DNA of 64,000 nucleotides from Clostridia bacterium (GTDB taxonomy: Bacteria; Bacillota; Clostridia; Saccharofermentanales; UBA5734), in contig JAXGXR010000002.1 in NCBI GenBank assembly GCA_040772725.1, forward strand, positions 949,223-1,013,222, read 5' to 3'. Made by a program: the position numbers and the translations under genes. Shown piece after piece: positions 26,235 to 43,822 of this stretch. The notes under the pieces were generated by a model, which saw only the letters and a list, made by a program, of their open reading frames with translations, had not been told where the DNA came from and searched no databases. How positions within the stretch are numbered: position 1 is the stretch's first letter; every line of letters starts with the position of its first letter.

Positions 26235-26335
26235 ATGAATTTTTTATGAAGAATGGAACTTTTTCCGTGCCATGACGTCTCATAACCAAATACGTGTGAT
26301 GCACCGTATGGATATATGACAGAAAGGTGATGACC

Positions 26336-29204: not shown

Positions 29205-30448
29205 TGCTGGGTGCCGCTCTGGCCCAGTTGCCGGGGATCAAGGCCGCCAAGGACATGAATGTCACCGTCATCACCTGTGACAATCAGCCTGAATCGGTCG
29301 GGCATGCGTTCGCGGATCATGTGGCCTACGCCAGCACATTCGATCCGGATGGTGTTTATCGTGCGGCTCAAATGTATGCGATCGATGGAATCATGACCAT
29401 GGGTTCTGACCAACCGGTCCTGACAGCCGCCCTGGTCGCCCGGAAAATGGGCCTGCCGTCCGCGCTTGATGTGCCAACTGCCCGCTCGGTCACCGACAAG
29501 CGGGTGATGAAGCGACGATTCACCCGGCTGGGCATTCCGACGGTGCCCTACCTGATCTATCGGCAAAACGAAGCGGAGTTGCGCCGCTTTACGTCCTGGC
29601 CGGTTGTCGTCAAGCCGGTCGACTCACAAGGCCAGCGGGGTGTCTTTCTGCTGGATTCGCCGGAAGCGGTCCTCGCACGCGTCAATGATGTGCTTGCTTT
29701 CAGCCGGGTCGATGAGATCCTGGTCGAATCATACTATCCGAGCGATGAGGTCACGGTCAGTGGCTGGGTCCGGGATGGCCAGGCGACGGTGCTGGCGATT
29801 ACAGATCGTGTCACCTTTTCCGAACGGGAACGGATCGGGATCTGTCTGGCCCATGATCTGCCTTCAAAGCATCTGGCCAGGCATGGCGAAGACCTGATCG
29901 CCCTCACACATGATATCGTTTCCGGGTTTGGCATCCGGAACGGACCGGTCTATTTCCAATTCCTGATCGGGGCGGACGGGATCAAGGTCAACGAGATCGC
30001 CTGCCGGATCGGCGGGGCATTCGAGTCCCAATTCCTTCCACAGGTGACGGGTTTTGACCTGACGAAAGTCCAGGTGCAATCCGTACTCGGCATGGCAACG
30101 GGCGTAAACAACTGGGATGCGCTTGGCCGGTTCGATGTCCGGTCCGACCGGCACTTCCTGTCCGTGCAATTGTTTTTTGCTGAGCCGTGCACCATCGGCA
30201 GTCTGACCCCGCTTGAGGAAATCCTGGCTTTGGATGGCGTACTGGACGCTGGATATCATAAAAGCTGCGGACAAACCATCCGGGACATCAGCGACGCGAC
30301 TGCCCGAGTCGGGTACTGCATTGTGACCGGAGATTCGCAAAAACAAGTGGATAGAAGGGTGGACCGGTTATATCAGGTGCTGGCGGTCCGCGACACAGAC
30401 GGCTACAACCGACTGATCCATCAACCACGACGGGAGGTGTCAGCATGA
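29192..30448 (+). CDS. ATP-grasp domain ligase
   Basis: Start at ATG 29192 behind GGGAGG. ATP-grasp-like motifs WPVVVKPVDSQGQRGVF, ILVESYY and VNEIACRIGG. Confidence 0.75.
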   Translation: MRLMMLGAALAQLPGIKAAKDMNVTVITCDNQPESVGHAFADHVAYASTFDPDGVYRAAQMYAIDGIMTMGSDQPVLTAALVARKMGLPSALDVPTARSVTDKRVMKRRFTRLGIPTVPYLIYRQNEAELRRFTSWPVVVKPVDSQGQRGVFLLDSPEAVLARVNDVLAFSRVDEILVESYYPSDEVTVSGWVRDGQATVLAITDRVTFSERERIGICLAHDLPSKHLARHGEDLIALTHDIVSGFGIRNGPVYFQFLIGADGIKVNEIACRIGGAFESQFLPQVTGFDLTKVQVQSVLGMATGVNNWDALGRFDVRSDRHFLSVQLFFAEPCTIGSLTPLEEILALDGVLDAGYHKSCGQTIRDISDATARVGYCIVTGDSQKQVDRRVDRLYQVLAVRDTDGYNRLIHQPRREVSA

Positions 30449-31431
30449 ACGGCAGGCGGTCTTTCATCCCACCGGGAATCCGCATGGCCGTCCTGGCTCT
30501 GCTCGTTTTCGTGACCGCGTTGATTGGTGGATGTGGTCAGCCAGAAGGGGTCGACATCATTGTCGCCGAACAATATGGCCTGGCCTACGCGCCGATTCAG
30601 ATCATGAAGGAGAAGGGCTTTCTGGAGCAGGCGCTTGCCAAGAGGACTGGCGTCAATCAACCGGTGTCCGTCAACTGGGTCAAACTGGCGAACACGGCCG
30701 CGATCCGGGAAGCCATGCTGGCCGATTCACTGGATGTGGCATTCGTCGGGATCCCGCCTTTCCTGATTGGCTTGGACCAGGGCATGCCCTGGAAGATGAT
30801 CACCGGGCTGTCGGAGTGCCCGCTGGACCTGATGGTTCACGAATCGTCCGTGCCTGACTTTCAATCGCTGGTCGGTGCGGGGAAGATCGCACTGCCGCAG
30901 CCGGGCAGCATCCAGCACATCCTGCTGGCGATGGCCGCTGAGAAGCAATTGGGCGATGCCTCGATTTTTGACCGCCAGCTGGTCTCGATGAAGCACCCGG
31001 ACGGGATGCAAGCCCTGCTTTCCGGTCAGGACATTGTGGCACACTTCACCGCGCCGCCGTATAATTTCATGGAATCGGAAACAGTTGGATTTCGATCGGT
31101 TCTGACTGGTGAAGCGGCAATGGGGGAACCATTCAGTTTCATTGTCGGCATCGCTCAGCCCGCTCTTTACGAGGACAAGATCCGAATTGAGGCTTTCATG
31201 GAAGCACTAGACCAATCATTCGCTTTCATCGACGAAAACCGGGACGAAACAGTAGCCTTGCTGGCTGCCAGCTTTGAGCTCAGTCCGGAACAGACCGAGG
31301 AATTTTTGTTCGAACGCGGTATCAGATTCGGACCGGAGATTCGCGGCACGTCCGCATTCAGTACGTTCATGACCCGGACAGGTTACATAGGAAGGCAGTA
31401 CGATGTTGAAGAACTGGTATGGCAAGGATAA
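30445..31431 (+). CDS. ABC substrate-binding lipoprotein, NMT1/THI5 (NitT/TauT) type
   Basis: Signal peptide plus lipobox (LIGGC). SsuA/NMT1-like fold pattern. ATGA-type overlap with the ATP-grasp gene. Confidence 0.7.
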   Translation: MNGRRSFIPPGIRMAVLALLVFVTALIGGCGQPEGVDIIVAEQYGLAYAPIQIMKEKGFLEQALAKRTGVNQPVSVNWVKLANTAAIREAMLADSLDVAFVGIPPFLIGLDQGMPWKMITGLSECPLDLMVHESSVPDFQSLVGAGKIALPQPGSIQHILLAMAAEKQLGDASIFDRQLVSMKHPDGMQALLSGQDIVAHFTAPPYNFMESETVGFRSVLTGEAAMGEPFSFIVGIAQPALYEDKIRIEAFMEALDQSFAFIDENRDETVALLAASFELSPEQTEEFLFERGIRFGPEIRGTSAFSTFMTRTGYIGRQYDVEELVWQG

Positions 31432-32170
31432 CGCGGCAAATCGCAGCGTTGGCCGCCAACTGATCTGGCTGGCCATCATCATCGCAATATGGGAGCTGGC
31501 AGCCAGGCTCAAGCTGGTCAACCCGCTGATCCTGCCGAGCGCGTCAGCGGTCCTTGTCCGGATGGTCACCGGCCTATGGGAAGGCACACTTGCCCTGCAG
31601 CTGCTTCAATCGATCGGCCTTGTCCTGGCCGGACTGGTGGTCGGCAGCCTGATTGGATTCATGTTAGCGTGCCTCGATTATTTCCTGCCATTCACCCGGC
31701 CGCTGATCACTCTGCTCAATGCCATGTTCCATCCGTTGCCGGGTGTCGCGATTCTGCCGTTGGTCCTGGCCATAGCCGGCCTTGGCCTGAAGTCTGTTTT
31801 CATTGTGATCCTGCATGCGGTTGTCTGGTCTACCTATTTGAACCTGTCGACCGGATTTCGCTCCGTCGATCCGGACTACATCGACGCGGCGCTCAATGTC
31901 GGCGTGAACAGTTGGCAGCTGGTCTGGCACATCCTGCTGCCGGTCAGCGGTCATCATGTTGTGACCGGGCTGAAAATCGGCTGGTCACGAGGATGGCGTG
32001 CCCTGATCAGCGCCGAGATGGTGTTCAGCGCGATCGGCGCGCTGGGAGGCATCGGCTGGTACTTGTTTGAAAGACGAGCCTTCATGGACACAACAGGGTT
32101 ATATGCGGGTATCTGCCTGGTCATTCTGACCGGCGTCCTCATGGAAAACATCCTGTTCAATCGCTCCTAG
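31403..32170 (+). CDS. ABC transporter permease, NitT/TauT family
   Basis: 255 aa, 6 TM, with the binding-protein-dependent transport EAA-like region. Overlaps the SBP gene by 29 nt. No ATPase gene follows. Confidence 0.8.
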   Translation: MLKNWYGKDNAANRSVGRQLIWLAIIIAIWELAARLKLVNPLILPSASAVLVRMVTGLWEGTLALQLLQSIGLVLAGLVVGSLIGFMLACLDYFLPFTRPLITLLNAMFHPLPGVAILPLVLAIAGLGLKSVFIVILHAVVWSTYLNLSTGFRSVDPDYIDAALNVGVNSWQLVWHILLPVSGHHVVTGLKIGWSRGWRALISAEMVFSAIGALGGIGWYLFERRAFMDTTGLYAGICLVILTGVLMENILFNRS

Positions 32171-32180
32171 GTCTTGAAAA

Positions 32181-32215
32181 AAAGAAAGCCCGGGGCTGAC
32201 CCGGGCCTTCTTTAT
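32181..32215. terminator. bidirectional terminator hairpin
   Basis: GCCCGGG-gctga-CCCGGGC stem flanked by AAAAAAAGAAA and CTTCTTTAT. Lies between convergent genes. Confidence 0.65.
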
Positions 32216-32245
32216 GTTCCATCAGACAATACCGGATGTGATCTG

Positions 32246-34843
32246 TCAGCCGGTTACCAGCTCGAAGCCGGCGTTGACCCAGCCCTGCGGCGCGTTGGAC
32301 GGCATGCCGGCGCCACCGTTGAGGGAGACGGCGTCGTAGCCGAGCAGGCGCAGGGAGGCGACGGCCTGGCCGGCGGTCTGGCCGGTGTAGCAGTAGACGA
32401 CGATCTTCTTGTCCTTCGGCAGCGCGCTCAGGTCATTGAGCATGGCCTTGCCGAACGGGATGTTGATCGCGCCGGGGATGTGGCCCTTCTGGTAGTCCTC
32501 GGCCTTGCGCACCGACAGGATGACAATGTCTTCCTTGGCGTCGATGGCGGCCTTGAGGTCGGCCTCGGAGATCTTGTAGTTCTTGTACTTGTCGGTGATC
32601 TGGACCATCTTGCCGTAGTAGTCGGCGACGGCCTTGGCGACGTTGGCGTTGACCGGATAGGTCTTGTCCGGCAGGGTGTTGGCTGTCGTCTCGGTGACAT
32701 CGGCGACACCCTCGACCTTGGAGATGCCGAAGTTCCAGCCCAGGTTGACGCTGCGGGCCTTGATGCCGGCGGCGTTCAAGGTGATGACGGCCTGGCCGGC
32801 GGTCTGGCCGGTGTAGCAGTAGACGAAGACGTCCTTGTCCTGCGGGATTTTGGCCAGGTTGTCACTGATGGCCGTGCCCCACGGGATGTTGACGGCGCCC
32901 TTGACATGGCCCTTCTCATAATCGGCGGCGCCGCGGATGTCAAGGATGACCAGGCTTTCGCCGGCCTTGACCTTGTCGACGAATTCCTTCTCCGCGATCT
33001 TGTAGATATGGTCCGGCATGTTGGCGACCAGCGCCTTCACGACCGACTCGACCGAAGCCTCGGCTGTGCCGGTTACCAGCTCGAAGCCGGCATTGACCCA
33101 GCCCTGCGGCGCGTTGGACGGCATGCCGGCGCCACCGTTGAGGGAGACGGCGTCGTAGCCGAGCAGGCGCAGGGAGGCGACGGCCTGGCCGGCGGTCTGG
33201 CCGGTGTAGCAGTAGACGACGATCTTCTTGTCCTTCGGCAGCGCGCTCAGGTCATTGAGCATGGCCTTGCCGAACGGGATGTTGATCGCGCCGGGGATGT
33301 GGCCCTTCTGGTAGTCCTCGGCCTTGCGCACCGACAGGATGACAATGTCTTCCTTGGCGTCGATGGCGGCCTTGAGGTCGGCCTCGGAGATCTTGTAGTT
33401 CTTGTACTTGTCGGTGATCTGGACCATCTTGCCGTAGTAGTCGGCGACGGCCTTGGCGACGTTGGCGTTGACCGGATAGGTCTTGTCCGGCAGGGTGTTG
33501 GCTGTCGTCTCGGTGACATCGGCGACACCCTCGACCTTGGAGATGCCGAAGTTCCAGCCCAGGTTGACGCTGCGGGCCTTGATGCCGGCGGCGTTCAAGG
33601 TGATGACGGCCTGGCCGGCGGTCTGGCCGGTGTAGCAGTAGACGAAGACGTCCTTGTCCTGCGGGATTTTGGCCAGGTTGTCACTGATGGCCGTGCCCCA
33701 CGGGATGTTGACGGCGCCCTTGACATGGCCCTTCTCATAATCGGCGGCGCCGCGGATGTCAAGGATGACCAGGCTTTCGCCGGCCTTGACCTTGTCGACG
33801 AATTCCTTCTCCGCGATCTTGTAGATATGGTCCGGCATGTTGGCGACCAGCGCCTTCACGACCGACTCGACCGAAGCCTCGGCTGTGCCGGTGACCAGCT
33901 CGAAGCCGGCGTTGACCCAGCCCTGCGGCGCGTTGGACGGCATGCCGGCGCCACCGTTGAGGGAGACGGCGTCGTAGCCGAGCAGGCGCAGGGAGGCGAC
34001 GGCCTGGCCGGCGGTCTGGCCGGTGTAGCAGTAGACGACGATCTTCTTGTCCTTCGGCAGCGTGCTCAGGTCATTGAGCATGGCCTTGCCGAACGGGATG
34101 TTGATCGCGCCGGGGATGTGGCCCTTCTGGTAGTCCTCGGCCTTGCGCACCGACAGGATGACAATGTCTTCCTTGGCGTCGATGGCGGCCTTGAGGTCGG
34201 CCTCGGAGATCTTGTAGTTCTTGTACTTGTCGGTGATCTGGACCATCTTGCCGTAGTAGTCGGCGACGGCCTTGGCGACGTTGGCGTTGACCGGATAGGT
34301 CTTGTCCGGCAGGGTGTTGGCTGTCGTCTCGGTGACATCGGCGACACCCTCGACCTTGGAGATGCCGAAGTTCCAGCCCAGGTTGACGCTGCGGGCCTTG
34401 ATGCCGGCGGCGTTCAGGGTGATGACGGCCTGGCCGGCGGTCTGGCCGGTGTAGCAGTAGACGAAGACGTCCTTGTCCTGCGGGATTTTGGCCAGGTTGT
34501 CACTGATGGCCGTGCCCCACGGGATGTTGACGGCGCCCTTGACATGGCCCTTCTCGTAATCGGCGGCGCCGCGGATGTCAAGGATGACCAGGCTTTCGCC
34601 GGCCTTGACCTTGTCGACGAATTCCTTCTCCGCGATCTTGTAGATATGGTCCGGCATGTTGGCGACCAGCGCCTTCACGACCGACTCGACCGAAGCCTCG
34701 GCCGGTTTCGTTGTCGTGGCGGCGGTTGTCGCCGCCGTCGTGTTGGTGGCTGTCATGGTCGGTACACTGGTGGCGGTCTGGCCGCATGCGGCGACGGTCA
34801 GTGCAAGAATAAGCAGGAGCGCTACAAGGGTCAGTTTCTTCAT
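32246..34843 (-). CDS. secreted lipoprotein with six rhodanese domains (3 x tandem double-rhodanese module)
   Basis: Start at ATG 34843 behind AAGGAG. Signal peptide and lipobox (LTVAAC), then a Thr-rich linker. Three 273-aa units follow, each with two GlpE/PspE-like domains carrying the active-site loop VYCYTGQTAGQAV. Confidence 0.85.
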   Translation of the reverse strand: MKKLTLVALLLILALTVAACGQTATSVPTMTATNTTAATTAATTTKPAEASVESVVKALVANMPDHIYKIAEKEFVDKVKAGESLVILDIRGAADYEKGHVKGAVNIPWGTAISDNLAKIPQDKDVFVYCYTGQTAGQAVITLNAAGIKARSVNLGWNFGISKVEGVADVTETTANTLPDKTYPVNANVAKAVADYYGKMVQITDKYKNYKISEADLKAAIDAKEDIVILSVRKAEDYQKGHIPGAINIPFGKAMLNDLSTLPKDKKIVVYCYTGQTAGQAVASLRLLGYDAVSLNGGAGMPSNAPQGWVNAGFELVTGTAEASVESVVKALVANMPDHIYKIAEKEFVDKVKAGESLVILDIRGAADYEKGHVKGAVNIPWGTAISDNLAKIPQDKDVFVYCYTGQTAGQAVITLNAAGIKARSVNLGWNFGISKVEGVADVTETTANTLPDKTYPVNANVAKAVADYYGKMVQITDKYKNYKISEADLKAAIDAKEDIVILSVRKAEDYQKGHIPGAINIPFGKAMLNDLSALPKDKKIVVYCYTGQTAGQAVASLRLLGYDAVSLNGGAGMPSNAPQGWVNAGFELVTGTAEASVESVVKALVANMPDHIYKIAEKEFVDKVKAGESLVILDIRGAADYEKGHVKGAVNIPWGTAISDNLAKIPQDKDVFVYCYTGQTAGQAVITLNAAGIKARSVNLGWNFGISKVEGVADVTETTANTLPDKTYPVNANVAKAVADYYGKMVQITDKYKNYKISEADLKAAIDAKEDIVILSVRKAEDYQKGHIPGAINIPFGKAMLNDLSALPKDKKIVVYCYTGQTAGQAVASLRLLGYDAVSLNGGAGMPSNAPQGWVNAGFELVTG
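32250..34701. repeat. tandem triplication, period 819 bp
   Basis: Units start at 32250, 33069 and 33888. I count 1 difference between units 1 and 2 and 4-5 differences to unit 3, of which only one is non-synonymous (Ala/Thr). Confidence 0.95.
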
Positions 34844-34938
34844 AAACGTTTTCTCCTTCAAATTGGGGATCATATTGGGGATCATATGGATGATTTGACC
34901 GGGATGGCAATCAAGTGGATTATGCTGGTGGGAATCGG

Positions 34939-35871
34939 TTATGACCCATCACCCTGTGTTGGCGCGATGGTTGTCGGAGCGGGTCCCGTCGGCTGGGCCG
35001 GCTGGGTCGGCGTGACAGGGGTCTGGTCGATAGAGGACCATTCGACCCATGCGCCATCGTAAACCTGTACGTTCTTGAATCCGGCTTCTTTGAGCAGCAT
35101 GTAGGTTTGTGTCGCACGGAAAGAAGTCTTGCAGTAGACAATGATGTTGTCATTCAATTTGACACCCTTGTCCATGTAATCCAGCAGGGTGTCATGACCG
35201 GACTTGAACCGTCCGTTATCATAAAGATTGTCGGTGTGCGGATAAAGGATGGCTTTCGGAATGGCGCCTTCCGCGAATTCGGCTTTGGTGCGCACATCGA
35301 TGATGACACCCTTTTCGCGTCCTTCAGTTATAGCCTTGACTTCGTCGATTGTCGCGTAGATGCCTTGATCAAGCGGTTTGGCTGTATATGTCGTGGGCTT
35401 GGGCTCGGTCGCCAGTCCGGTGATGGGCAGACCGGCCAGAACGATGCCGGCTTCGCCGTGATTGACCAGCCAGGCGTTCTCGTGGCCGTACGCCTTTAGC
35501 ACCCACCAGACCCTGCTGGCGTTGACGCCGGCATTGTGGTCGTAGATATACACTTTCGACTGGTTGCTGATGCCCATCCGGCCAAGTTCTTCCTCAACCT
35601 GTGCCTGCGATGCGATCAGGTTGGGGACGGGCTCCTGGACGGACAGCATGGACGGGGGCAGGTTGATCGCGTTTTCCAGGTGTCCAGCGCCATAATTTTC
35701 CGACGGCCGGGCATCGATGACGACGGCATCCGGATCCTTCATCAGTTCCGCCAGGTCAGTTGCCTCAACAAAGTGGATACTGTCGGTGAATTCAGTCTTG
35801 TTGCAAGCCGCAACTGTCAACAGTAAAGCAATCGCCAGCAGACAGAATACAGCCTGTTTCATGAGACGCAT
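34939..35871 (-). CDS. lipoprotein thiosulfate/3-mercaptopyruvate-type sulfurtransferase (two-domain rhodanese)
   Basis: Start at ATG 35871 behind AGGAGG. Lipobox LTVAAC. An inactive N-terminal rhodanese domain plus a C-terminal domain with the loop VYCKTSFRAT, followed by a Pro/Thr-rich C-terminal tail. Confidence 0.85.
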   Translation of the reverse strand: MRLMKQAVFCLLAIALLLTVAACNKTEFTDSIHFVEATDLAELMKDPDAVVIDARPSENYGAGHLENAINLPPSMLSVQEPVPNLIASQAQVEEELGRMGISNQSKVYIYDHNAGVNASRVWWVLKAYGHENAWLVNHGEAGIVLAGLPITGLATEPKPTTYTAKPLDQGIYATIDEVKAITEGREKGVIIDVRTKAEFAEGAIPKAILYPHTDNLYDNGRFKSGHDTLLDYMDKGVKLNDNIIVYCKTSFRATQTYMLLKEAGFKNVQVYDGAWVEWSSIDQTPVTPTQPAQPTGPAPTTIAPTQGDGS

Positions 35872-36089
35872 ATTGTTTGTTCCTCCTGAAAATAGCATAT
35901 GATGGTAACACTGTTCCCATCATATCACAAATCGTTTAATTGTCACCTGTCTCAGTGTTCAATGAGGGGGCAAAATTGCCTAAATAACGTAAACGATTGC
36001 ATCTGTTTTGCGGTCAAGAGAGAAAAGCATGTGTCGTCCTGGTTGCCACGTATGATAAAATCAGGGAAACACAAAAGGCAGGACAGGGT

Positions 36090-37781
36090 GTGAAGGGAAC
36101 AGGAAGCAGGGAACGGCCGCATCGGGATCGATCCGGCAGGATCATCCATTCACAGGCCATCCTCTATGGCCTTGTCTGGACATCGATCCAGGTGATGACC
36201 CTGGACCGCTTCCCGTTCGTCCATTCCGATGAAGCATGGCTGTCCGGGCTGTCGCTGACCATGCTCCGCGCGAGATCCTTCCTGGTGACCGAGCCCTTTT
36301 TCGATGTGTTCCCCCGACAGGCTCACGCATTCAAAATCCTCTTTCATGCGCTTCAATCCGGTTTCATCCAGCTGTTCGGCTATCAGCTGAAGAGTATCAG
36401 GCTGATCAGCCTGATGGCCGCGATGGCCTGCCTCGTCATGTTGCATGTCCATGCCGATCGCCTGTTTTCAGACAAGAAGGCAGCCCTGGGCTTCACGATC
36501 CTGTTCAGTCTCCAGATCCAGTTCCTGTACGCTTCCCATCTGGCCCGCCAGGAAATCCTGCTTCTGCTGGTGCTCATTCTGGCCGGTTTTCTGTATGATC
36601 GATCCACAGCCGGACGATTCTGGGTCATGCCACTCATGATCGGTCTGTCCGCGATGCTGCACCCGAACGCATTCATCATCGCCATGATGATCGGGCTGGT
36701 TGTTCTCAAGGACGCCTGGCGAAAACGCATCCCACGTAACCGTTTGCTGTTGTACACCGGCATCCTGCTTTCATGCATGGTCGCGCTGACATCTGTCAGC
36801 CTGGCCATGACGCCGGATTTCCTGACCAATTATGCCCGATACGGGTCAACATTCGGCATGGATACGGGTCTGATCTCTCGCTGGCAAGGCTTCCTTGCCT
36901 ATTTCATCAAGCTATTTCAGCAGATCAGCGGCTCTTACTGGCTGCCGGACATCCGTTTCTGGCTGATACTAGGCGGAGTGGTCACGCTTGTCTCGATTGC
37001 AGCCCTGCTTTTGGCTGGTCGACGAATTGGAATGGAAACGAGAAACGGTCTCGAAAACGGCCTGTGTGGAATGGGGGGATTTTTGATGGCCACCTTCATC
37101 ATCGGCCGATACAATCCGACCGCCATCCTGTTTGCCTTCTACCCGATTCTACTGCTGACCGGACACCTGCTGAATGCCTTGTGGCAGTCCCGCTCACAAT
37201 GGCTCAGAGGGACGGCGATTGCTGCAGCCGGTGGGCTGATTGCCTTCAGCCTGGTGGGCAGTATCCAGACGATTCGACCGTTCACGATGAAGGTGACGGA
37301 TCCATACGAATTGTATCTGGCTGAAATTCGCGGCCATCTGCCTCAGGACGCCATCGTGCTCGGCAACCTGAGCGCGGGATTTGCCCTGATGGATGTTCCG
37401 TTCTATGACATCCGCAACCTGGACCATGTGGCAAACCTGAATGGCCAGGACAACAATGTTCCGTCAACCAGCATAAGTGACCCGGATAAGCAAATGACAA
37501 CAGCATCTGACATAGAGGCCTATCTGCAAAAAAACGAAATCAACACGGTCATCTGGTATGAGGAATATGACTACATCATCAGAAACCCCATGTGGCGGAT
37601 CCTCTATGAGGAGCAATCCGACAGCACAGCTCCGTCCGACATGCTGATGGCCCTCAAGCAGGTGGTCGAAGAAAGGGGCGACTTGCTCCATACGTTCGAA
37701 TCCAAGGTGTATGGGACCCGGATCGCCCGGTTTATGGACGACTATCCATGGCAGATCAGCTTGTATCGGATCCAGCCTTGA
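36090..37781 (+). CDS. GT-C fold membrane glycosyltransferase (ArnT/PMT-like, GT39/GT83-type)
   Basis: More than 10 TM segments and an acidic HSDEAW motif in the first extracytoplasmic loop, then a ~160-aa soluble C-terminal domain. Start is uncertain (GTG 36090 or ATG 35997). Confidence 0.55.
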   Translation: MKGTGSRERPHRDRSGRIIHSQAILYGLVWTSIQVMTLDRFPFVHSDEAWLSGLSLTMLRARSFLVTEPFFDVFPRQAHAFKILFHALQSGFIQLFGYQLKSIRLISLMAAMACLVMLHVHADRLFSDKKAALGFTILFSLQIQFLYASHLARQEILLLLVLILAGFLYDRSTAGRFWVMPLMIGLSAMLHPNAFIIAMMIGLVVLKDAWRKRIPRNRLLLYTGILLSCMVALTSVSLAMTPDFLTNYARYGSTFGMDTGLISRWQGFLAYFIKLFQQISGSYWLPDIRFWLILGGVVTLVSIAALLLAGRRIGMETRNGLENGLCGMGGFLMATFIIGRYNPTAILFAFYPILLLTGHLLNALWQSRSQWLRGTAIAAAGGLIAFSLVGSIQTIRPFTMKVTDPYELYLAEIRGHLPQDAIVLGNLSAGFALMDVPFYDIRNLDHVANLNGQDNNVPSTSISDPDKQMTTASDIEAYLQKNEINTVIWYEEYDYIIRNPMWRILYEEQSDSTAPSDMLMALKQVVEERGDLLHTFESKVYGTRIARFMDDYPWQISLYRIQP

Positions 37782-37841
37782 TCAGATAAAAGGAGGCTTC
37801 CCGATTGCCGGTCAGCCTCCTGTCAGATGATTTCCGTCGCT

Positions 37842-37874
37842 CTTGACCTTGTCTGTGCTGACAAGGTCAAGTTT
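37842..37874. terminator. hairpin between convergent genes
   Basis: CTTGACCTTGTC-tgtgct-GACAAGGTCAAG perfect 12-bp stem followed by TTTAAA on the plus strand. Confidence 0.5.
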
Positions 37875-37884
37875 AAACCGCCTG

Positions 37885-39609
37885 TTATTTGAAGTTGTAC
37901 TTGGTCACGATCTTGTCGCGACCGGTGACCTGGTCATTGTAGTATTCGTAATAGCAGATGCCCAGATACGATCCGGATATGTTCCTGACATTGCAATACC
38001 CAAGATTGTACAAAGCCTTGACGGCGTTGTAGCTTCTCTGGGAAGACCGGCAATGCATATAGACGGGAATGTCCTGGGGAATTTCGTCTACTCTTTGCCG
38101 AAGCTCGCTGAGCGGGATGTTGATCGCATTGATCAGGTGACCGGCTTCATATTCCCGCTTCTCACGGACATCGACGATGAAGGCATTGCTCTCGACCAGT
38201 TCTCTGACCTCGGACACCTTGACCTGTTCGAAATCGCCGTTCAGCAGATTCAGTCCCACCAGCGCGGCCAGGTTGACAACATCCTTGGCCGTCCCGAACG
38301 GCGGCGCGTAGCACAGTTCGAGCTCTTTCAAGTCTTCAAGGGTACCGCCCATGGTGATCATGGTTGCGATCACGTCGATCCGCTTGTCCACGTTGCCCTT
38401 GCCGATGGCCTGGGCACCCAGGATCGTGCCGGTCGGGACTTCATACACCAGCTTGAAATGCATTGGATTGCTGTCCGGCATCAGGCCGACCTTGTCGCTC
38501 GGGATGATGTAGACGAAATCATGATGAATGCCGGCTTTCTGGGCAGCTTTGACGGTCAGTCCGGTCGAGGCGGCGTTCATGCCGAAGACCTTGATGCAGG
38601 ATGAACCGATGACACCGGTGTAGCGATGGGGTTTGCCGTACATGTGGTCTGCCGCGGCCCGGGCTTGTCTCTGGGCCGGACCGGCCAGGGGCAGCCGAGT
38701 CCGCTGCTTGGTGATCTGATTGTAGGTCTCGATCGCGTCGCCGACGGCATAGATGTTCTTGTCATTCGTCAGATAATTGTGGTCGACCAGAATGCCGCCG
38801 GTTTCTCCCAGTTTCAGGCCGGCATCGACAGCCAGGGAAACTTCCGGCCTGACACCGATGGCCATGACGACCGCTTCAGCCGGTATGGTCTTGCCGGAAT
38901 TGAGTTCGATGGCTTCTTCCCCGACTTTTTTCAAGCCGTCACCCAGAATGAGGTTGACACCCTGGTCCATCATTTCCTTGTGGAGGATCTGTGCCATGTC
39001 GTAATCATAGGGCGCCATGATCTGGTCGAGGGCTTCGACCAGCGTGACATTGAACCCGGCTTCCTTCAGGTTTTCAGCAACTTCCACGCCGATGAAGCCA
39101 CCGCCGATCACGGCGATGTTGTTGACTTCGCACATCTCGACATTGGTCATTTTCGTACGGCTCTTGACGTACTTGTTCAGTTTGTCGATGTCCACGACAT
39201 TTCTGACGACAAAAACGTTGGGGCCGTCAATGCCTTCGATGCTCCTGGGGAGGATCGGGTTTGCACCCGGGGAAAGGAACAGTTTGTCATAGGTCTCTTT
39301 GTATTCTTTTCCGGTGTCGAGTTCCCTGACCGTGACTGTTTTCTTGGCCCGGTTGATTTTGACGACTTCTGACATGACCCGGGCCTGGATGTTGTACTGC
39401 TTCTTGAAAACGATCGGATCCATCAGAACAAGATCCTCGCTGTTTGGAACGATTCCACTCAGATGATAAGGCAAGGAGCAGTTTGAAAAACTGACATTGG
39501 GCCCTCTTTCGAACATGATGATCTCGGCGGTTTCATCGATGCGCCTCACCCTGGCTGCCACGGAAGCGCCGCCGGCGACACCTCCAACGATCAGAATCTT
39601 TTTCCCCAT
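37885..39609 (-). CDS. CoA-disulfide reductase / NAD(P)H persulfide reductase with a C-terminal rhodanese domain
   Basis: 574 aa. FAD motif VGGVAGGAS, redox Cys SFSNCSLPY, NAD motif VIGGGFIGVE, and a C-terminal rhodanese with the loop MHCRSSQRS. Confidence 0.9.
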   Translation of the reverse strand: MGKKILIVGGVAGGASVAARVRRIDETAEIIMFERGPNVSFSNCSLPYHLSGIVPNSEDLVLMDPIVFKKQYNIQARVMSEVVKINRAKKTVTVRELDTGKEYKETYDKLFLSPGANPILPRSIEGIDGPNVFVVRNVVDIDKLNKYVKSRTKMTNVEMCEVNNIAVIGGGFIGVEVAENLKEAGFNVTLVEALDQIMAPYDYDMAQILHKEMMDQGVNLILGDGLKKVGEEAIELNSGKTIPAEAVVMAIGVRPEVSLAVDAGLKLGETGGILVDHNYLTNDKNIYAVGDAIETYNQITKQRTRLPLAGPAQRQARAAADHMYGKPHRYTGVIGSSCIKVFGMNAASTGLTVKAAQKAGIHHDFVYIIPSDKVGLMPDSNPMHFKLVYEVPTGTILGAQAIGKGNVDKRIDVIATMITMGGTLEDLKELELCYAPPFGTAKDVVNLAALVGLNLLNGDFEQVKVSEVRELVESNAFIVDVREKREYEAGHLINAINIPLSELRQRVDEIPQDIPVYMHCRSSQRSYNAVKALYNLGYCNVRNISGSYLGICYYEYYNDQVTGRDKIVTKYNFK

Positions 39610-39738
39610 GGTTTTGATTTCTCCTTTCTTTGATTCCGGACAAATTCAAACATGCCGTTCATGTGGCAAAATATCGATAAATATGTTCGGATATGTCACT
39701 TGACTATCTGAATCGTGATCAAGAACGAGAGAATTCGT

Positions 39739-41010
39739 TCAGCGTTTGGCAAAAATGACTTTTGAGAGCGAATGGCCGATAACCCCGCCAACCACCATGA
39801 AAACCAGGAATACCCATCCGGAAAGCGAGAAATTGGCAATTGGCGTGAACAGGGCGCCGACATTGCAGCCATTGGCCAGTCGAGTGCCAAATCCCATCGT
39901 CAATCCGCCCAACACGAACGTCAGGGCTTCACGGGTGGTGATGTGGATTTCCTCCAGAAAGGTTTCCTTGAAGACGCCGGCTGTCAGCAGGAAAACAGCG
40001 GTCCCCAGCACAATGCCGACGTTCTGGACGGTAATCTGGTTCTGGAACAGCGGCTGTGTGAAACTGCCGGCACTCATGCCGGAGAAGGAAGCCAGCGAAT
40101 CCGCCGACACTCCAAACAGCATCAGGATCTTGCCAAACCAGATTCCATACGGGGTGGAAGCGCCCCAGCCGGCTCGGGTCACGCCCATCATCAATCCGTA
40201 GAAGATGACCAGCAGGACCGCGCCTTGCTGCAGGGTCCACGGCCTGACGAAGAGACGGTCGTATGTGCTGTTGCTCAGCGGTTTGAAGTCCTTGGCGTCC
40301 GGCTCGGCCAGAGCAGCCTGCTTTTTCTCCATGCCGACACCGGTGTATGTGTTGTTCAGCTTGCGGCGCTTTTCGTATAGCGTGGCCAGCCAGACGACCG
40401 CACCGCAAAGGATTGCGGTCATGAGCAGCGCGCCAATATAGCCGCCGGTGCCGTCCCCGCGGAACAGGTCGGGCAGGAAGATGCCATTGTGGTAGGTCGC
40501 CTTGTCCACATCCAGGAAGAACCAGGACCGCTTGACCCAAGCTGCTCCGTTTTGAAGCGGATAACCCAGGAAGACGCCCATCATGAAGAAAATCAGCGTG
40601 ATGAACGCTCGCGGCAGACCTGTCACCAGGTCTGTCATCACACCGGAGGCGCAGCAGGAAGCGAAGGACATGCCGAAACCGAAGAGCAGTCCGCCAAGAA
40701 TCAAGCCCAGATTGATCGGATTGATCCAGAGACTGTAGGTGGTCGCATCCTGTCGGAACAAGAACGCGGTCGTCAGGAGCGCCGCGATGAAGAACATGAA
40801 CATCATGGTTCGCATCAGTTTTGTCGATCCGGTTCTAACAGCCCGGTTGACGCTGCCGGCAAAGCCGGTGTAGGCCCTTGAAAGGGTGTAACCGATTCCG
40901 GTACCGACCAGAAGCCGGAAAAACAGGACATCTGACGCCAACAAAGTCTTGCCCAGGATCATGAGCAGAATAATGCCGATAAAACCAATCACTTTCTCCA
41001 CATTCTTCAT
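39739..41010 (-). CDS. YeeE/YedE family sulfur-compound (thiosulfate-type) transporter
   Basis: 423 aa, multi-TM. Conserved Cys motifs SFASCCASG and RLANGCNVG are typical of YeeE/YedE. Confidence 0.85.
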   Translation of the reverse strand: MKNVEKVIGFIGIILLMILGKTLLASDVLFFRLLVGTGIGYTLSRAYTGFAGSVNRAVRTGSTKLMRTMMFMFFIAALLTTAFLFRQDATTYSLWINPINLGLILGGLLFGFGMSFASCCASGVMTDLVTGLPRAFITLIFFMMGVFLGYPLQNGAAWVKRSWFFLDVDKATYHNGIFLPDLFRGDGTGGYIGALLMTAILCGAVVWLATLYEKRRKLNNTYTGVGMEKKQAALAEPDAKDFKPLSNSTYDRLFVRPWTLQQGAVLLVIFYGLMMGVTRAGWGASTPYGIWFGKILMLFGVSADSLASFSGMSAGSFTQPLFQNQITVQNVGIVLGTAVFLLTAGVFKETFLEEIHITTREALTFVLGGLTMGFGTRLANGCNVGALFTPIANFSLSGWVFLVFMVVGGVIGHSLSKVIFAKR

Positions 41011-41060
41011 AAGTACCCTACCTCTTATTCGTGTGCTTTTGATTAATGGTGTTGACAGTC

Positions 41061-41069
41061 ATTATATCA
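41061..41069 (-). promoter_or_regulatory. extended -10 element upstream of yeeE-like gene
   Basis: Minus strand reads TGATATAAT (TGnTATAAT) about 50 nt upstream of the ATG. No good -35 element. Confidence 0.3.
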
Positions 41070-41127
41070 GTGATTCATGAAAAAGTGCATGTTTTTGACC
41101 AAATGCCGGAAACGATTTCGATACAAT

Positions 41128-41982
41128 TCAACGTTGTCTTTTCACCGGCTCATCTTTGTCCATCCTGACAGTATCTGTATCCATATCTCCGGTGATCATG
41201 ATCAGGATCTCATCTCGTACCTCCATGTATCCTTGCGAATAGCGAACGTGATCCAGTTTGCTATCGCCATTCAGGATTTCATAGGTGAAATGCGTGCGAA
41301 ATTCTTTGATGATCTTGCTTGGCCGTTGCGACATCACTAGAATTCTGGTCCCCAGGGAAAGGGCTTCATCAACATCGTGGGTGATCAATAGGACCGTGCT
41401 CTGTGTTTTCTGCCAGATCTCCCGAGCCAGATTCTGGATATTCTTTCGGGTCAGCGCATCAAGAGCGCCGAAGGGTTCGTCCATCAGCACCATGCGAGGC
41501 TGATTGACCAGTATCCTGGCAAAAGCCGCACGTTGCTTCATTCCACCGGACAATTCATATGGATGATAATTGGCAAAGTCGCTCAACCCGACAGTCTTTA
41601 GACTTTCAGCAGTCAATTCTTCGATCTTTTCCCTGGATACATGCCGCATCTTCAAACCAAATGAAATGTTGTCATGTACATTGAGCCATGGAAAACAAGA
41701 AGGACGCTGGAAGATGACGCCACGATCCCAATCCGGTCCGGTAATCGGCTTATGATCCATTATTGCTTCGCCATCGGTTGGTAGAAGCAAACCGGCGATA
41801 ATCCAAAGCAATGTACTTTTTCCGCACCCTGAAGGACCGAGCAGACAAACGAATTCACCCGCCTCGATATCAAGATTGATATCTTGAAGAACAACCACGT
41901 CACCTTTTGCGCCATGATAGGTCATATGGATATTATTCAGCGAGATGATGTGGTCTTTCGGTCCTGCTGTGGCTGCATTCAT
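41128..41982 (-). CDS. ABC transporter ATP-binding protein, NitT/TauT family (TauB/SsuB-like)
   Basis: Walker A GPSGCGKST, signature LSGGMKQR, Walker B LMDEPFGALD. Confidence 0.9.
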   Translation of the reverse strand: MNAATAGPKDHIISLNNIHMTYHGAKGDVVVLQDINLDIEAGEFVCLLGPSGCGKSTLLWIIAGLLLPTDGEAIMDHKPITGPDWDRGVIFQRPSCFPWLNVHDNISFGLKMRHVSREKIEELTAESLKTVGLSDFANYHPYELSGGMKQRAAFARILVNQPRMVLMDEPFGALDALTRKNIQNLAREIWQKTQSTVLLITHDVDEALSLGTRILVMSQRPSKIIKEFRTHFTYEILNGDSKLDHVRYSQGYMEVRDEILIMITGDMDTDTVRMDKDEPVKRQR

Positions 41983-42001: not shown

Positions 42002-43048
42002 CTATTTTTTCATTTGCTGCACGGCTTGTTCGATATAAAACGAATTGATGGCCGCTTCGAAAACCGATAGTTTCGGTTCGGAGACCAGGCTGTTCTGTTC
42101 ATACAGGAAATCAGCAGTGTCCTTGATGGCGGCTGCCAGATTGCCCCGCTTCTCAGTCGTTCCAAAATAAGCCGTGTCAAGTTGCTCCTCTGCGCGGAGC
42201 CAGATCGATCCGGTCATCTGTTTGAGCGCATCCGCCTCAGTGAGTTCCATGGCCCTCGCAATGGACTTGACGGCTTCCGGCTGGTTTTCCTTGAACAGCG
42301 CCACGCATTCGTCCACCGTTTGGATGTATTTGACGACGATGTCGGGGTACTGCTGGGCAAATTCACGCCGGACAATCTCGACGTTCATGGTGACTATCCC
42401 CTGGTTTGCCAGGTCTTCACTGCTGATGATCATCTTGCCGTCTGTCAGCAGGTTGGACAGGGTCGGTTCCCAGGCATAAGCCGCGTCGATGTCTCCCCTT
42501 TGCCATGCGGCATAAAGGTCGGGCATCTGCATGTCATAGATCTCCACGTCTTTTTCGGCGATGCCGTTCAATTCCAATGCTTTCAACAGGCTGTAGTGGG
42601 CTGTCGATGAAAACGGTGTCGCCACCTTCTTGCCCACCAGGTCCTGGATCGTTTCGATGGAGGATCCGTTTCGGGCAACCAGCTGTTCGGCCAGTCCCAA
42701 GACCTCATGGATCCAGATCAACTCCACGTCAATGCCATTGGCAATGCCGATTGTCGCCGATGATGATCCAAGGTGGGCAAAATCGATGTCCTTGGAAACC
42801 AATGCGTTCCGGATTTCTCCTGCCTGGAATTCAATGATGTTGACCTTGACGCCGAGCGCTTTTTCGAACAGGCCCTTTTCGATGGCAATCCGCTCACCGT
42901 TGGGTATCTGCTGGGTGCCGATATTGACAACGACTGGCAAGGGTGTGCCGGTCGAATCGGATGGTTGTGTTGAATGATTACAACCAGCCAGCAAAACAAG
43001 GGAGATGGTCAATGAGAGAATGATTGAAATGGCCCGTTTGCATTTCAT
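42002..43048 (-). CDS. ABC substrate-binding lipoprotein, taurine/sulfonate (TauA-like)
   Basis: Lipobox LLAGC. The 348-aa NMT1/TauA-like pattern includes the AYAWEP motif. Confidence 0.75.
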   Translation of the reverse strand: MKCKRAISIILSLTISLVLLAGCNHSTQPSDSTGTPLPVVVNIGTQQIPNGERIAIEKGLFEKALGVKVNIIEFQAGEIRNALVSKDIDFAHLGSSSATIGIANGIDVELIWIHEVLGLAEQLVARNGSSIETIQDLVGKKVATPFSSTAHYSLLKALELNGIAEKDVEIYDMQMPDLYAAWQRGDIDAAYAWEPTLSNLLTDGKMIISSEDLANQGIVTMNVEIVRREFAQQYPDIVVKYIQTVDECVALFKENQPEAVKSIARAMELTEADALKQMTGSIWLRAEEQLDTAYFGTTEKRGNLAAAIKDTADFLYEQNSLVSEPKLSVFEAAINSFYIEQAVQQMKK

Positions 43049-43075: not shown

Positions 43076-43822
43076 CTAACATTCTTTTCCTTTCCAGGGG
43101 ACTAACTTTCTTTCAATAAAAAGGATGATCCTGTCCAGCATGATTCCTGTGATTCCCATCAGGATGATGCCTAGAAAAATGATGTCGCTGCGCATGTAAC
43201 GACTCGCGTCCAGAACCATCCAGCCGACACCTGACCTCGCCGCAACCATTTCAGCGGATACCAGTGTCGTGTAGCCTACACCCAGTGCAGTCCGGATCCC
43301 GGTGAAAATGTCCGGCAGGCAGGCCGGGAATATGACATGGATGTAGATCTGCCATTTTGTTGCACCAACAATTCGGGCATTGTTGATGTAGTCTTCTCGG
43401 ATTTTTGACACAGCAGAAGCACTCGCGATATATATGGGAGCCATGCAGGCAAGGAACAGAAGGGAGATTTTGGATTCGTTTCCGATGCCCATCCATAGCA
43501 CGAGCAGGGTGTAATAGGCCAGTGGCGGCAGCGGCCGATAAAATTCGATCAGCGGCTCCAGGGCGGCCCGGACCTTCGGGCTGTTGCCGCTGGCCAGACC
43601 CAGTGGGACGGTGATGACAACCGCCGCGAAGAACGCGATCAGCAGGCGTTCAAGACTGGTGCCCAGATGCTGCAGCAGCGTGAAGTTCTTGTAACCATTG
43701 CGAAGAATGTCCACAAAGGCCTTCCAGACGGAGGCCGGTGCCGGGACCAGCTTGGGGTCGACCCATTTGAGGGAGGTGGAAACAAACCATATCGCGAAAA
43801 CACTCGCGATGACAGCGAACAT
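43076..43822 (-). CDS. ABC transporter permease, NitT/TauT family (TauC-like)
   Basis: 248 aa, 6 TM. It is the first gene of the permease-SBP-ATPase string on the minus strand. Confidence 0.85.
   Translation of the reverse strand: MFAVIASVFAIWFVSTSLKWVDPKLVPAPASVWKAFVDILRNGYKNFTLLQHLGTSLERLLIAFFAAVVITVPLGLASGNSPKVRAALEPLIEFYRPLPPLAYYTLLVLWMGIGNESKISLLFLACMAPIYIASASAVSKIREDYINNARIVGATKWQIYIHVIFPACLPDIFTGIRTALGVGYTTLVSAEMVAARSGVGWMVLDASRYMRSDIIFLGIILMGITGIMLDRIILFIERKLVPWKGKEC

Follow-up and report, generated by a model that had tools for sequence, protein, structure and literature searches.

We analysed a 64,000-nt stretch of the genome of a Clostridia bacterium (contig JAXGXR010000002.1, positions 949,223 to 1,013,222; hereafter, the window), which carries a cluster of predicted sulfur-handling genes around two exported rhodanese proteins. 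A first-pass annotation of this DNA had proposed two rhodanese lipoproteins with the lipobox LTVAAC, a YeeE/YedE-family membrane protein and a coenzyme A disulfide reductase–rhodanese fusion (CoADR-RHD), and all four were recovered at the same positions. The seven cysteine loops it had counted were likewise found, six of them reading CYTGQTA in the multi-rhodanese protein and one reading CKTSFRA in its partner. The genes and features of the cluster are listed below in window coordinates.

32246-34843, minus strand: multi-rhodanese lipoprotein, 865 aa (Pfam domains; 100% identical to P0001; ribosome-binding site)
32246-34885, minus strand: the multi-rhodanese open reading frame (ORF) as mechanically called in the ORF list, 879 aa
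32249-34705, minus strand: three tandem 819-bp DNA repeats (32249-33067, 33068-33886 and 33887-34705), from a repeat search and a script
34939-35871, minus strand: two-domain rhodanese lipoprotein of the thiosulfate sulfurtransferase/3-mercaptopyruvate sulfurtransferase (TST/MST) type, 310 aa (listed ORF 34939-35898; equal to P0218; ribosome-binding site)
34942-34962, minus strand: C-terminal heptapeptide PTQGDGS-COOH of this TST-type partner, from homologue comparison
35872-36089, strand not assigned: divergent intergenic region between the partner and glycosyltransferase genes, with a promoter-like site inside
36090-37781, plus strand: membrane glycosyltransferase of the C-type fold (GT-C), 563 aa (AlphaFold2 model and Foldseek; H-S-D-E motif)
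37885-39609, minus strand: CoADR-RHD fusion, 574 aa (Pyr_redox_2, dimerisation and Rhodanese domains)
39739-41010, minus strand: YeeE/YedE-family membrane protein (YeeE423), 423 aa (Sulf_transp domain; motifs CCASG and GCNVG)
41128-41982, minus strand: TauB-like ATPase of an ATP-binding cassette (ABC) importer, below the taurine equivalog cut-off
42002-43048, minus strand: TauA-like lipoprotein substrate-binding protein, below the taurine equivalog cut-off
43076-43822, minus strand: TauC-like permease, below the taurine equivalog cut-off

In the order of minus-strand transcription, the genes encode the TauC-, TauA- and TauB-like importer, YeeE423, CoADR-RHD, the 310-aa rhodanese and the 865-aa rhodanese, with the plus-strand GT-C gene inserted after CoADR-RHD, convergent with it and divergent from the rhodanese genes. 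Because this gene intervenes, the rhodanese genes and the YeeE423/CoADR-RHD genes are separate transcription units. The cluster is therefore not a single operon, and the YeeE423 and CoADR-RHD genes, previously described as downstream of the rhodanese genes, both lie upstream of them on the minus strand. The multi-rhodanese gene most likely starts with the ATG at 34843, which has GGAG 8 nt upstream and gives the 865 aa of P0001; the start of the partner gene is likely at 35871, with AGGAGG upstream, and gives the 310 aa of P0218. For the rhodanese genes, a promoter-like site was recognised at 35946-35919 of the minus strand (GTGACA, a 16-nt spacer and the extended −10 element TG-TATGAT), and it is conserved in the closest relative, L012, an Oscillospiraceae metagenome-assembled genome (MAG). 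Just upstream of the likely multi-rhodanese start stands a 12-bp tandem repeat of 2.5 copies (34858-34887), which encodes the in-frame MIPNMIPN extension of the mechanical ORF and overlaps a promoter-like site at 34910-34881. A repetitive 962-aa ORF rich in Gly, Asp, Ala and Val (32174-35062, plus strand) runs antisense to the entire multi-rhodanese gene and is most likely an artefact of G+C-rich repeated coding sequence rather than a gene. Rfam returned no riboswitch or other RNA element near the cluster genes.

The multi-rhodanese protein is built of a lipobox signal peptide, a Thr/Ala-rich linker and three 273-aa units with two rhodanese domains each. Pfam model PF00581 matches it in six stretches (338.4 bits, cut-off 22.2; E = 6.6e-103), and the CYTGQTA loops begin at residues 144, 286, 417, 559, 690 and 832 in the numbering of the 879-aa ORF. 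Its signal peptide, MKKLTLVALLLILALTVAAC, has a basic N-terminus, a hydrophobic core and the lipobox LTVAAC. Homologue statistics here and below refer to the 120 best homologues of each rhodanese protein, and lipoboxes were called by pattern matching throughout, in the two window proteins as in their homologues. A lipobox was found in 112/120 homologues of the multi-rhodanese protein and 117/120 of the partner, and the loop read CY[ST]GQTA in 480 of the 486 instances retrieved with a cysteine-based pattern, so that neither feature can be put down to chance. The placement of the rhodaneses outside the cytoplasmic membrane, suggested earlier from the two window proteins, is thus predicted for the family at large. 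Across 105 aligned units, the active-site loop is nearly invariant and extends to YCY[ST]GQTAGQ, invariant in both domains; CYTGQTA contains no basic residue. As quoted from Bordo and Bork (2002), sulfurtransferases have a cysteine followed by a short loop, as against the longer loop of Cdc25 and arsenate reductases, and all the active-site loops of the cluster, namely the six CYTGQTA, CKTSFRA and the CRSSQRS of CoADR-RHD, are C-X5 loops of sulfurtransferase length.

The three 819-bp copies, which start at 32249, 33068 and 33887, differ from one another by only 1-7 nt, which points to a very recent intragenic triplication of the two-domain unit. Tandem Repeats Finder, with its period limit of 500, missed these repeats, and it was the repeat search and script that revealed them. 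Relatives carry one, two or three units: L012, with 84-90% identity and the same gene order, has one, and the metagenome protein P0002 (88% identity) carries a pair of units that share 98.5% identity. Four loops were counted in 108 and six in 7 of the 120 best-scoring homologues, a ranking that favours long proteins. Units within one protein elsewhere are 54-98% identical (median 71%), and in distant lineages they are often nearer to their siblings in the same protein than to the units of other species, which argues for repeated expansion or homogenisation of the unit. Arrays of this kind recur within the family and are not a unique trait of the window genome, and six domains in a row are no defining feature but one state of a variable number.

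At least 490 homologues of the multi-rhodanese protein were found, mostly in Clostridia (Fusibacter, Vallitalea, Oceanirhabdus, Acidaminobacter, Tissierellales and Oscillospiraceae) and Spirochaetes, and the nearest loci are those of Oscillospiraceae MAGs. The PspE/GlpE and NF045521 ('rhoda_near_glyco') models gave 194.8 and 207.7 bits, each summed from six stretches, while a one-unit orthologue fell below the single-domain cut-offs (PspE 57.0, cut-off 102; NF045521 53.9, cut-off 145). In Halanaerobium saccharolyticum (L060, 6375-7277, minus strand) and the MAG L061 (13041-13937, minus strand), the CYTGQTA-type protein lacks a lipobox and instead starts with a type I signal peptide, with predicted cleavage after VFA or VSA; by these signals it would be soluble in the periplasm instead of lipid-anchored. 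The first loop of the Halanaerobium protein reads CYTAQTA.

The 310-aa partner has two PF00581 stretches (121.9 bits). Its N-terminal domain has no active-site Cys motif, its C-terminal domain carries CKTSFRA at ORF residue 256, and its signal peptide, MRLMKQAVFCLLAIALLLTVAAC, holds the same lipobox LTVAAC. The family form of the loop, CK[ST]S[FYVI]R[AG], has two basic residues, and basic loops are found in thiosulfate-using rhodaneses such as the bovine enzyme (CRKGVTA) and that of A. vinelandii (CQTHHRS). Matches in the PDB include 3AAX (E = 5.7e-26), 1URH (E = 1e-17) and YnjE, and the NCBIfam 3-MST equivalog gave 92.4 bits (cut-off 250). By its architecture and its similarity to the PDB entries, the partner resembles the classical tandem TST/MST-type proteins, as a relative of the 3-MST equivalog and not a member of it. 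The C-terminus is conserved: after a variable tail of 15-77 residues, 119/120 homologues (P0218-P0337) end in P-[ST]-x-[QGS]-[DSN]-[AG]-S-COOH, with DAS as the last three residues in 76, DGS in 35, SAS in 7 and NAS in 1. The window protein ends in PTQGDGS, and Spirochaete orthologues end in D-N-S or D-V-S. In the AlphaFold2 model, with a mean predicted local distance difference test score (pLDDT) of 89.8, the tail is left disordered (pLDDT 43-54). Docking of the tail on its own protein was accordingly rejected, and the tail seems instead to be a peptide that another protein recognises or attaches to.

YeeE423 matches Sulf_transp (PF04143) with 171.9 bits (cut-off 27; E = 3.1e-50) and falls below both TsuA equivalog models (49 bits, cut-off 400; 25 bits, cut-off 645). 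The window ORF list has no TusA/YeeD ORF between or beside 37885-41128. CoADR-RHD combines the redox Cys motif SFSNCSLPY with a rhodanese domain (PF00581, 61.4 bits) whose loop is CRSSQRS. Its PDB matches are 3NTA (E = 4.7e-144), 3ICR (E = 2.3e-140) and 8A56 (E = 2.6e-124), and it aligns to 3NTA in two segments over nearly the whole length, with SFSNCSLPY facing SFANCGLPY. The plain CoA-disulfide reductase equivalog TIGR03385 gave 435.6 bits (cut-off 578.8). A metagenome scan with YeeE423 yielded 30 loci, and CoADR-RHD directly followed YeeE in all 28 that extend far enough. A TauCAB-like importer came next in about 15 of these metagenome loci and in Halanaerobium. Nine of the loci carry a one-unit CYTGQTA protein, a TST-type partner or both, and four (L048, L053, L054 and L028) have YeeE423, CoADR-RHD and tau genes with no rhodanese genes within the fetched flanks. 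No candidate for the CsoR-family persulfide sensor CstR was seen among the ORFs of 60 aa or more between 28 and 46 kb, no hidden Markov model having been run for it; in related loci the conserved regulator is a LysR. Pfam and NCBIfam scans of the largest window ORFs and of the annotated related loci returned no molybdoenzyme (PsrABC-type) family.

Conservation of the neighbourhood was assessed by clustering the ORFs of 28 loci, the window and 27 related ones from Clostridia and Spirochaetes. Rhodanese genes are present in 27/28 and a PMT_2-like membrane protein (the GT-C) in 24/28, followed by ATP-grasp (22/28), family 2 glycosyltransferase (GT2; 20/28), YeeE (19/28), DegT aminotransferase (18/28), TusA (17/28), a flavoprotein of about 413 aa that resembles thioredoxin reductase (TrxR) and has a thioredoxin-like end (15/28), LysR (14/28) and an SsuA-like substrate-binding protein and permease (13/28). 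The GT-C gene, with an amino-sugar and undecaprenyl-phosphate-type pathway, and an ABC importer are the most frequent neighbours in these loci, and they had been missed. The typical order in Clostridia is TrxR, YeeE, TusA and YeeE, all read leftwards, then LysR, TusA, GT2 and ATP-grasp (with substrate-binding protein, permease and ATPase), a leftward GT-C gene, and finally rhodaneses of about 300 and 600 aa (Rhd300, Rhd600), DegT and RmlB. In Spirochaetes, YeeE, TusA, YeeE, TrxR, Rhd300, Rhd320 and GT-C are co-directional with small gaps, and the TrxR-like gene even runs a few bases into the first rhodanese gene.

The import and reduction genes accordingly come in a split form, with a half-size YeeE pair, TusA between them and the TrxR-like flavoprotein, and in a fused form, with YeeE423 and CoADR-RHD. 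Two non-orthologous import-and-reduce modules are found again and again next to one and the same pair of rhodaneses in three lineages (Clostridia, Halanaerobiales and Spirochaetes), and it is this recurrence that most strongly supports the central idea of the first-pass annotation, a link between the exported rhodaneses, a YeeE-family channel and a cytoplasmic flavoprotein reductase. As the two modules are alternatives beside the same pair, the part played elsewhere by TusA/YeeD probably falls to the rhodanese domain of CoADR-RHD. The neighbourhood predicted at the outset is conserved as far as YeeE and a reductase recur near the rhodaneses, but CoADR-RHD itself was not seen in any of the 25 genome loci retrieved with the multi-rhodanese protein. 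In two loci, L026 (1930-3621, minus strand) and L059 (3052-4595, plus strand), the half-size YeeE genes stand in permuted order when set against the full-length YedE/FdhT model, the first of them corresponding to model positions of about 176-383 and the second to about 3-159, with the TusA gene between them.

The layout of the window recurs in H. saccharolyticum (L060), where YeeE419, CoADR-RHD565, permease, substrate-binding protein and ATPase are followed by Rhd300 and Rhd306, both read leftwards, and a rightward GT-C gene. Halanaerobium reduces thiosulfate, and PMC5497025 reports three rhodaneses that are more abundant with thiosulfate in Halanaerobium WG8. Its supplement lists the adjacent genes Ga0073283_11115 (thiosulfate/3-mercaptopyruvate sulfurtransferase) and _11116 (rhodanese-related sulfurtransferase), with spectral counts of 41 and 87 in one sample against 1-3 for their neighbours; among its sequences, a CYTGQTA loop stands beside a TST-type gene. 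The published models treat the rhodaneses as generic thiosulfate-cleaving enzymes coupled to the anaerobic sulfite reductase Asr. Halanaerobium, Fusibacter and Spirochaeta smaragdinae are classic non-sulfate-reducing reducers of thiosulfate and elemental sulfur, and a 'rhodanese-like protein', RdlA, has been described in Halanaerobium and S. smaragdinae; we infer that the Halanaerobium orthologues are RdlA. The earlier remark that no described array of this kind was known needs qualifying on this account: the family is widespread and its orthologues are already tied to thiosulfate reduction, although a surface location does not appear in the consulted parts of PMC5497025.

The second conserved part of the cluster comprises the GT-C gene and a plus-strand operon of overlapping genes (27238-32170), with the following features.

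27238-28392, plus strand: DegT-type transaminase for dTDP-4-amino-4,6-dideoxyhexose (dTDP, deoxythymidine diphosphate), first gene of the operon
28389-29204, plus strand: ArnC-like GT2, in the operon
29129-30448, plus strand: ATP-grasp protein of the L-amino-acid-ligase type, in the operon
30445-31431, plus strand: SsuA-like lipoprotein substrate-binding protein, in the operon
31403-32170, plus strand: permease of the SsuA-like importer, in the operon
32188-32206, strand not assigned: G+C-rich, terminator-like hairpin between the convergent permease and multi-rhodanese genes

The GT-C protein has an AlphaFold2 model of pLDDT 91.5 with a C-terminal extracytoplasmic alpha/beta domain. Its top 31 Foldseek matches in the PDB are all GT-C enzymes (probability 1.00, TM score about 0.5), among them ALG12, DPY19, STT3/PglB, ArnT, Pmt4, AftB and Emb, while the Pfam PMT_2 score stops just short of the cut-off (25.6 against 26.1 bits). 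In the first outer loop, H45-S46-D47-E48 does not vary across a set of 38 sequences with 28-69% identity to the window protein. PMT enzymes carry a 'DE' motif, and by analogy a catalytic role is inferred for the acidic residues of H-S-D-E. The family is small and sharply bounded, with 358 representatives at E<=1e-3 and 187 at E<=1e-30 among 1.84 billion; phmmer gave no connection to ArnT or PMT, and PDB sequence searches with the GT-C protein (single sequence and profile) and with the SsuA-like binding protein returned nothing useful. Members only 26-34% identical to the window protein nevertheless adjoin rhodanese genes in 5/5 extra loci sampled. A literature search found no described system that joins rhodanese with GT39, ArnT or ATP-grasp.

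The sugar handled here is probably a dTDP-4-amino-4,6-dideoxyhexose and not 4-amino-4-deoxy-L-arabinose (Ara4N), to judge from model scores: DegT passes NF008687 (dTDP-4-amino-4,6-dideoxygalactose transaminase; 402.6, cut-off 375), whereas it gives 165.7 with ArnB (cut-off 631) and the GT2 gives 71.4 with ArnC (cut-off 529). RmlA- and RmlB-like genes are added in related loci. In the Clostridium MAG locus L058 (12419-14401, minus strand), GT2 and ATP-grasp are fused into one protein of 660 aa, which suggests that both act on the same sugar intermediate. By a logic like that of Arn, an N-acylated amino sugar would be loaded on polyprenyl phosphate and moved to the outside of the membrane. In Arn, ArnE and ArnF set the precedent for a flippase of a lipid-linked sugar, and by analogy a 141-aa EamA-type half-transporter directly upstream of the GT-C gene in L061 (7035-7460, plus strand) may be such a flippase. 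The most likely role of GT-C, supplied with a polyprenyl-phosphate sugar by DegT, GT2 and ATP-grasp, is the glycosylation of some part of the outer module. As its target, the Thr-rich linker is weakened by the Halanaerobium and L061 proteins, which have no such linker. Glycosylation of a C-terminal Ser or Thr with a lipid-linked donor by TfpO and TfpM (PMC9829042) offers a precedent for the conserved terminal Ser of the partner tail. The tail as sole target was rejected, since GT-C occurs near a CYTGQTA-type protein alone in L014, L025 and L061.

Two observations touch this part of the locus. The SsuA-like operon genes (30445-32170, plus strand) have no ATPase gene of their own in the window or in L012, while most related loci have one, and the TauB-like ATPase at 41128-41982 may be shared. 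Just upstream of the DegT operon lies a small lipoprotein gene (26327-27055, plus strand; lipobox AVAGC) with no Pfam match, whose product has a linker of about 65 residues made almost wholly of Thr, Ala and Pro; this composition resembles that of the multi-rhodanese linker and suggests heavy O-glycosylation.

Taken as a whole, the region is most likely one copy of a conserved multi-part system with which anaerobic fermenters handle sulfane sulfur at the outer face of the membrane. The more specific proposal, an extracytoplasmic sulfane-sulfur relay that would feed YeeE and a cytoplasmic persulfide reductase, has in our estimate an even chance of being right. It builds on the observed domain content, export signals and synteny, whereas every transfer step and the direction of flux are deduced. 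The TST-type protein would take the outer sulfur of thiosulfate, or sulfur from polysulfide, as a cysteine persulfide and pass it to the CYTGQTA domains, which would act as a tethered relay or store, with more units giving more capacity or reach. A sulfur species would then enter through YeeE and be accepted by the rhodanese domain of CoADR-RHD (elsewhere by TusA), and reduction with NAD(P)H would yield H2S, either for disposal of fermentation reductant or as sulfide for assimilation. The TauABC-like importer may bring in a sulfite or sulfonate co-product. The path beyond the outer rhodaneses is made plausible by published work: YeeE and YeeD take up thiosulfate, as cited in PMC9774590; the split YedE1E2 takes up zero-valent sulfur (PMC10812762); in Thermotoga, yeeE was induced 42-fold along with a cytoplasmic NAD(P)H polysulfide/thiosulfate reductase (PMC9431562); and CoAPR reduces CoA persulfide through its rhodanese cysteine (PMC9405070). 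What stands of the original interpretation is the predicted export of the rhodaneses and their link to YeeE and a reductase, while its gene order and emphasis on the hexa-array do not, and it had overlooked the GT-C, amino-sugar and importer genes.

Several points weigh against the relay. The window has its rhodanese genes, its GT-C gene and its YeeE423/CoADR-RHD genes in separate transcription units, and CoADR-RHD was found in 0/25 of the genome loci that have the multi-rhodanese protein. YeeE423 is only distantly related to the crystallised thiosulfate transporter (E = 1.8e-11) and is without one of its three conserved cysteines, having RAYTGF, with no Cys, where 6LEO has RGRICF, a motif that we take to hold Cys22 of StYeeE. 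As characterised YeeE takes up thiosulfate without an outer rhodanese, it is hard to see why an external relay should be needed. The copy number in the window depends on correct assembly, and three near-identical 819-bp repeats could be miscounted. Finally, the glycosylation module is left unexplained by the relay and equally by each of the alternatives considered below.

One alternative is that two independent systems happen to be neighbours, the rhodaneses and the GT-C/amino-sugar genes serving a cell-envelope function, and YeeE, CoADR-RHD and TauABC forming a separate cytoplasmic unit for uptake of thiosulfate or sulfonate and clearance of reactive sulfur, like cst-type operons of Firmicutes. 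The intervening GT-C gene and separate transcription units would follow naturally, as would the 25 genome loci lacking CoADR-RHD and the four metagenome loci whose YeeE423, CoADR-RHD and tau genes stand without rhodaneses in the fetched flanks; CoAPR, moreover, is a known persulfide-clearing enzyme (PMC9405070). Chance adjacency would, however, have to account for the repeated presence of two non-homologous YeeE and reductase modules near these two rhodanese genes across Clostridia, Halanaerobiales and Spirochaetes, and for the co-directional Spirochaete genes with gaps of a few bases, and we consider it unlikely. It is somewhat harder still to credit a purely protective role at the surface, in which outer rhodaneses detoxify cyanide, polysulfide and reactive sulfur, glycosylation stabilises them, and YeeE and the reductase handle leakage. 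The domains do resemble PspE/GlpE, rhodaneses of the periplasm are known, PspE and YnjE among them (YnjE also being a PDB match of the partner), and the hosts come from sulfidic habitats. Protection nonetheless leaves unaccounted the linkage to an importer-type channel and to ABC importers dependent on substrate-binding proteins, as well as the recurrent expansion to 4-6 active sites, and the orthologues are abundant in a thiosulfate-reducing organism (PMC5497025).

Selenium in place of sulfur is improbable in our view. Here, the rhodaneses would bind perselenide, a YedE-like channel with YedF/TusA-like proteins would import it and a TrxR-like or CoADR enzyme would reduce it, for acquisition or detoxification. 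The best NCBIfam matches of several partners are indeed selenium families: the LysR of related loci gives 170 bits with LysR_Sec_metab (cut-off 250), each YeeE half about 95-111 bits with selen_YedE_FdhT (cut-off 350), YedF is also matched, and ExtH, rhodanese_LYCAU and TsoB are among the rhodanese matches, ExtH of Geobacter being a rhodanese-like lipoprotein linked to selenite handling. None of these selenium-family scores, though, attains its curated cut-off. The window showed no selD, no selA and no selenoprotein marker, the active sites have no in-frame TGA, and all 486 loops begin with Cys, as retrieved with a cysteine-based pattern. Sulfonate-type ABC importers belong to the cluster, and the Halanaerobium orthologues respond to thiosulfate, as reported in PMC5497025.

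The sulfane-sulfur relay has a close functional analogue in Wolinella succinogenes, where Sud, a periplasmic polysulfide-sulfur transferase, feeds the polysulfide reductase PsrABC. As would hold for the window proteins, Sud is a rhodanese-fold protein outside the cytoplasmic membrane that carries sulfane sulfur on one Cys and hands it to a sulfide-producing membrane system. Unlike them, it is a soluble single-domain homodimer serving a periplasm-facing molybdoenzyme, whereas the window has two lipoproteins, in a family whose multi-rhodanese protein has 2-6 active domains, and, with no Psr seen, a YeeE-type channel and cytoplasmic reduction as its partner. Sud was not among the sequence matches. 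Exported rhodanese domains also occur in PspE, YnjE and ExtH, the last of which is likewise a lipoprotein. PspE, however, is a single domain of 85-104 aa, YnjE has three domains with one active site, and ExtH belongs to an outer-membrane cytochrome conduit cluster; none of the three is known to be linked to GT-C or YeeE, and NCBIfam per-domain scores against these families are sub-threshold.

TsuA/TsuB and YedE1E2 share with YeeE423 the Sulf_transp membrane protein with conserved Cys motifs, and the related loci resemble YedE1E2 (PMC10812762) in having a half-size YeeE pair with a TusA gene between. Unlike YeeE/YeeD, YeeE423 has a flavoprotein-fused rhodanese domain in place of a TusA/YeeD neighbour, and no outer rhodanese is known in the characterised YeeE/YedE systems. 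CoADR-RHD has the architecture and both catalytic cysteines of Npsr from Shewanella loihica (3NTA), B. anthracis CoADR-RHD (3ICR) and E. faecalis CoAPR (8A56). CoAPR, though, lies in a CstR-regulated operon with cytoplasmic rhodaneses, in contrast to the YeeE-family partner and frequent Tau-like importer of the window enzyme. The logic of ArnB, ArnC and ArnT, and in part that of protein O-mannosyltransferases and of TfpO/TfpM, resembles the one predicted for the window, in which an aminotransferase of the DegT type would be followed by loading of polyprenyl phosphate by GT2 and transfer outside the membrane by GT-C; the window differs in its ATP-grasp ligase, its importer dependent on a substrate-binding protein and a GT-C of a separate small family. 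RdlA and the rhodanese-like proteins come from the same organisms as the cluster and are very probably the same proteins; in the passages of PMC5497025 consulted, they are not connected with signal peptides, YeeE/CoADR-RHD, a GT-C/sugar module, unit expansion or the C-terminal motif. Outer rhodaneses of the Sud/PspE type, uptake by YeeE and reduction by Npsr or CoAPR are thus already known in kind, and the orthologues are tied to thiosulfate reduction. What appears new is that the rhodaneses are predicted to lie outside the membrane, that they have either of two import-and-reduce modules as partners, that unit number has grown repeatedly, and that a dedicated GT-C/amino-sugar pathway and a conserved terminal D-x-S tail accompany them.

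A bolder reading, which we regard as a long shot, would bring the glycosylation module into the sulfane-sulfur relay by having it supply the outer rhodaneses with a cofactor or prosthetic arm that carries sulfur. ATP-grasp would couple an amino acid, possibly cysteine or another thiol acid brought in by the SsuA-like importer, to the 4-amino-4,6-dideoxyhexose; GT2 would load the product on polyprenyl phosphate; and GT-C would attach it outside the membrane, with the C-terminal Ser of the D-[A/G]-S tail as a possible site. The glycan-borne thiol would then shuttle persulfide between the active sites and the YeeE channel. Such an arm may be likened to the swinging arms of phosphopantetheine, lipoyl groups and SoxY, and to the sugar-cysteine thiols mycothiol and bacillithiol; if true, it would be new biochemistry.

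Halanaerobium, Fusibacter and some Spirochaetes are fermentative, non-sulfate-reducing sulfidogens that cause souring and corrosion in oil and gas systems and drive a cryptic turnover of thiosulfate and elemental sulfur in sediments, and current models of their metabolism use unspecified 'rhodanese-like' enzymes. The present analysis gives these enzymes a predicted outer location, a set of partners (a YeeE-family protein and an Npsr/CoAPR- or TrxR-type reductase), a variable number of units and an unexpected, closely linked GT-C and amino-sugar pathway. It offers a candidate pathway, together with a set of genomic markers by which such sulfidogenesis could be recognised.

Some further features of the window lie outside the cluster. 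Three glycyl radical enzymes of the generic PFL2-3 subfamily (8093-10504, minus strand; 18445-20916 and 22919-25297, plus strand) are present, two of them adjoined by radical S-adenosylmethionine activases (20916-21944 and 25284-26234, plus strand). A role for them as sulfonate lyases was rejected, as no equivalog was reached beyond generic PFL2-3; none attains the choline, hydroxyproline or sulfopropanediol family cut-off, and they are not conserved in the related loci. The LysR-family regulator of the window (47643-48596, plus strand) has its best match in the selenium-metabolism LysR family, at a sub-threshold 143.7 bits (cut-off 250). A tRNA gene (50012-50084, minus strand) adjoins an integrase-core (rve) ORF (50212-51489, plus strand), and this pair possibly forms one border of a mobile element, only a few kb away from the sulfur genes.

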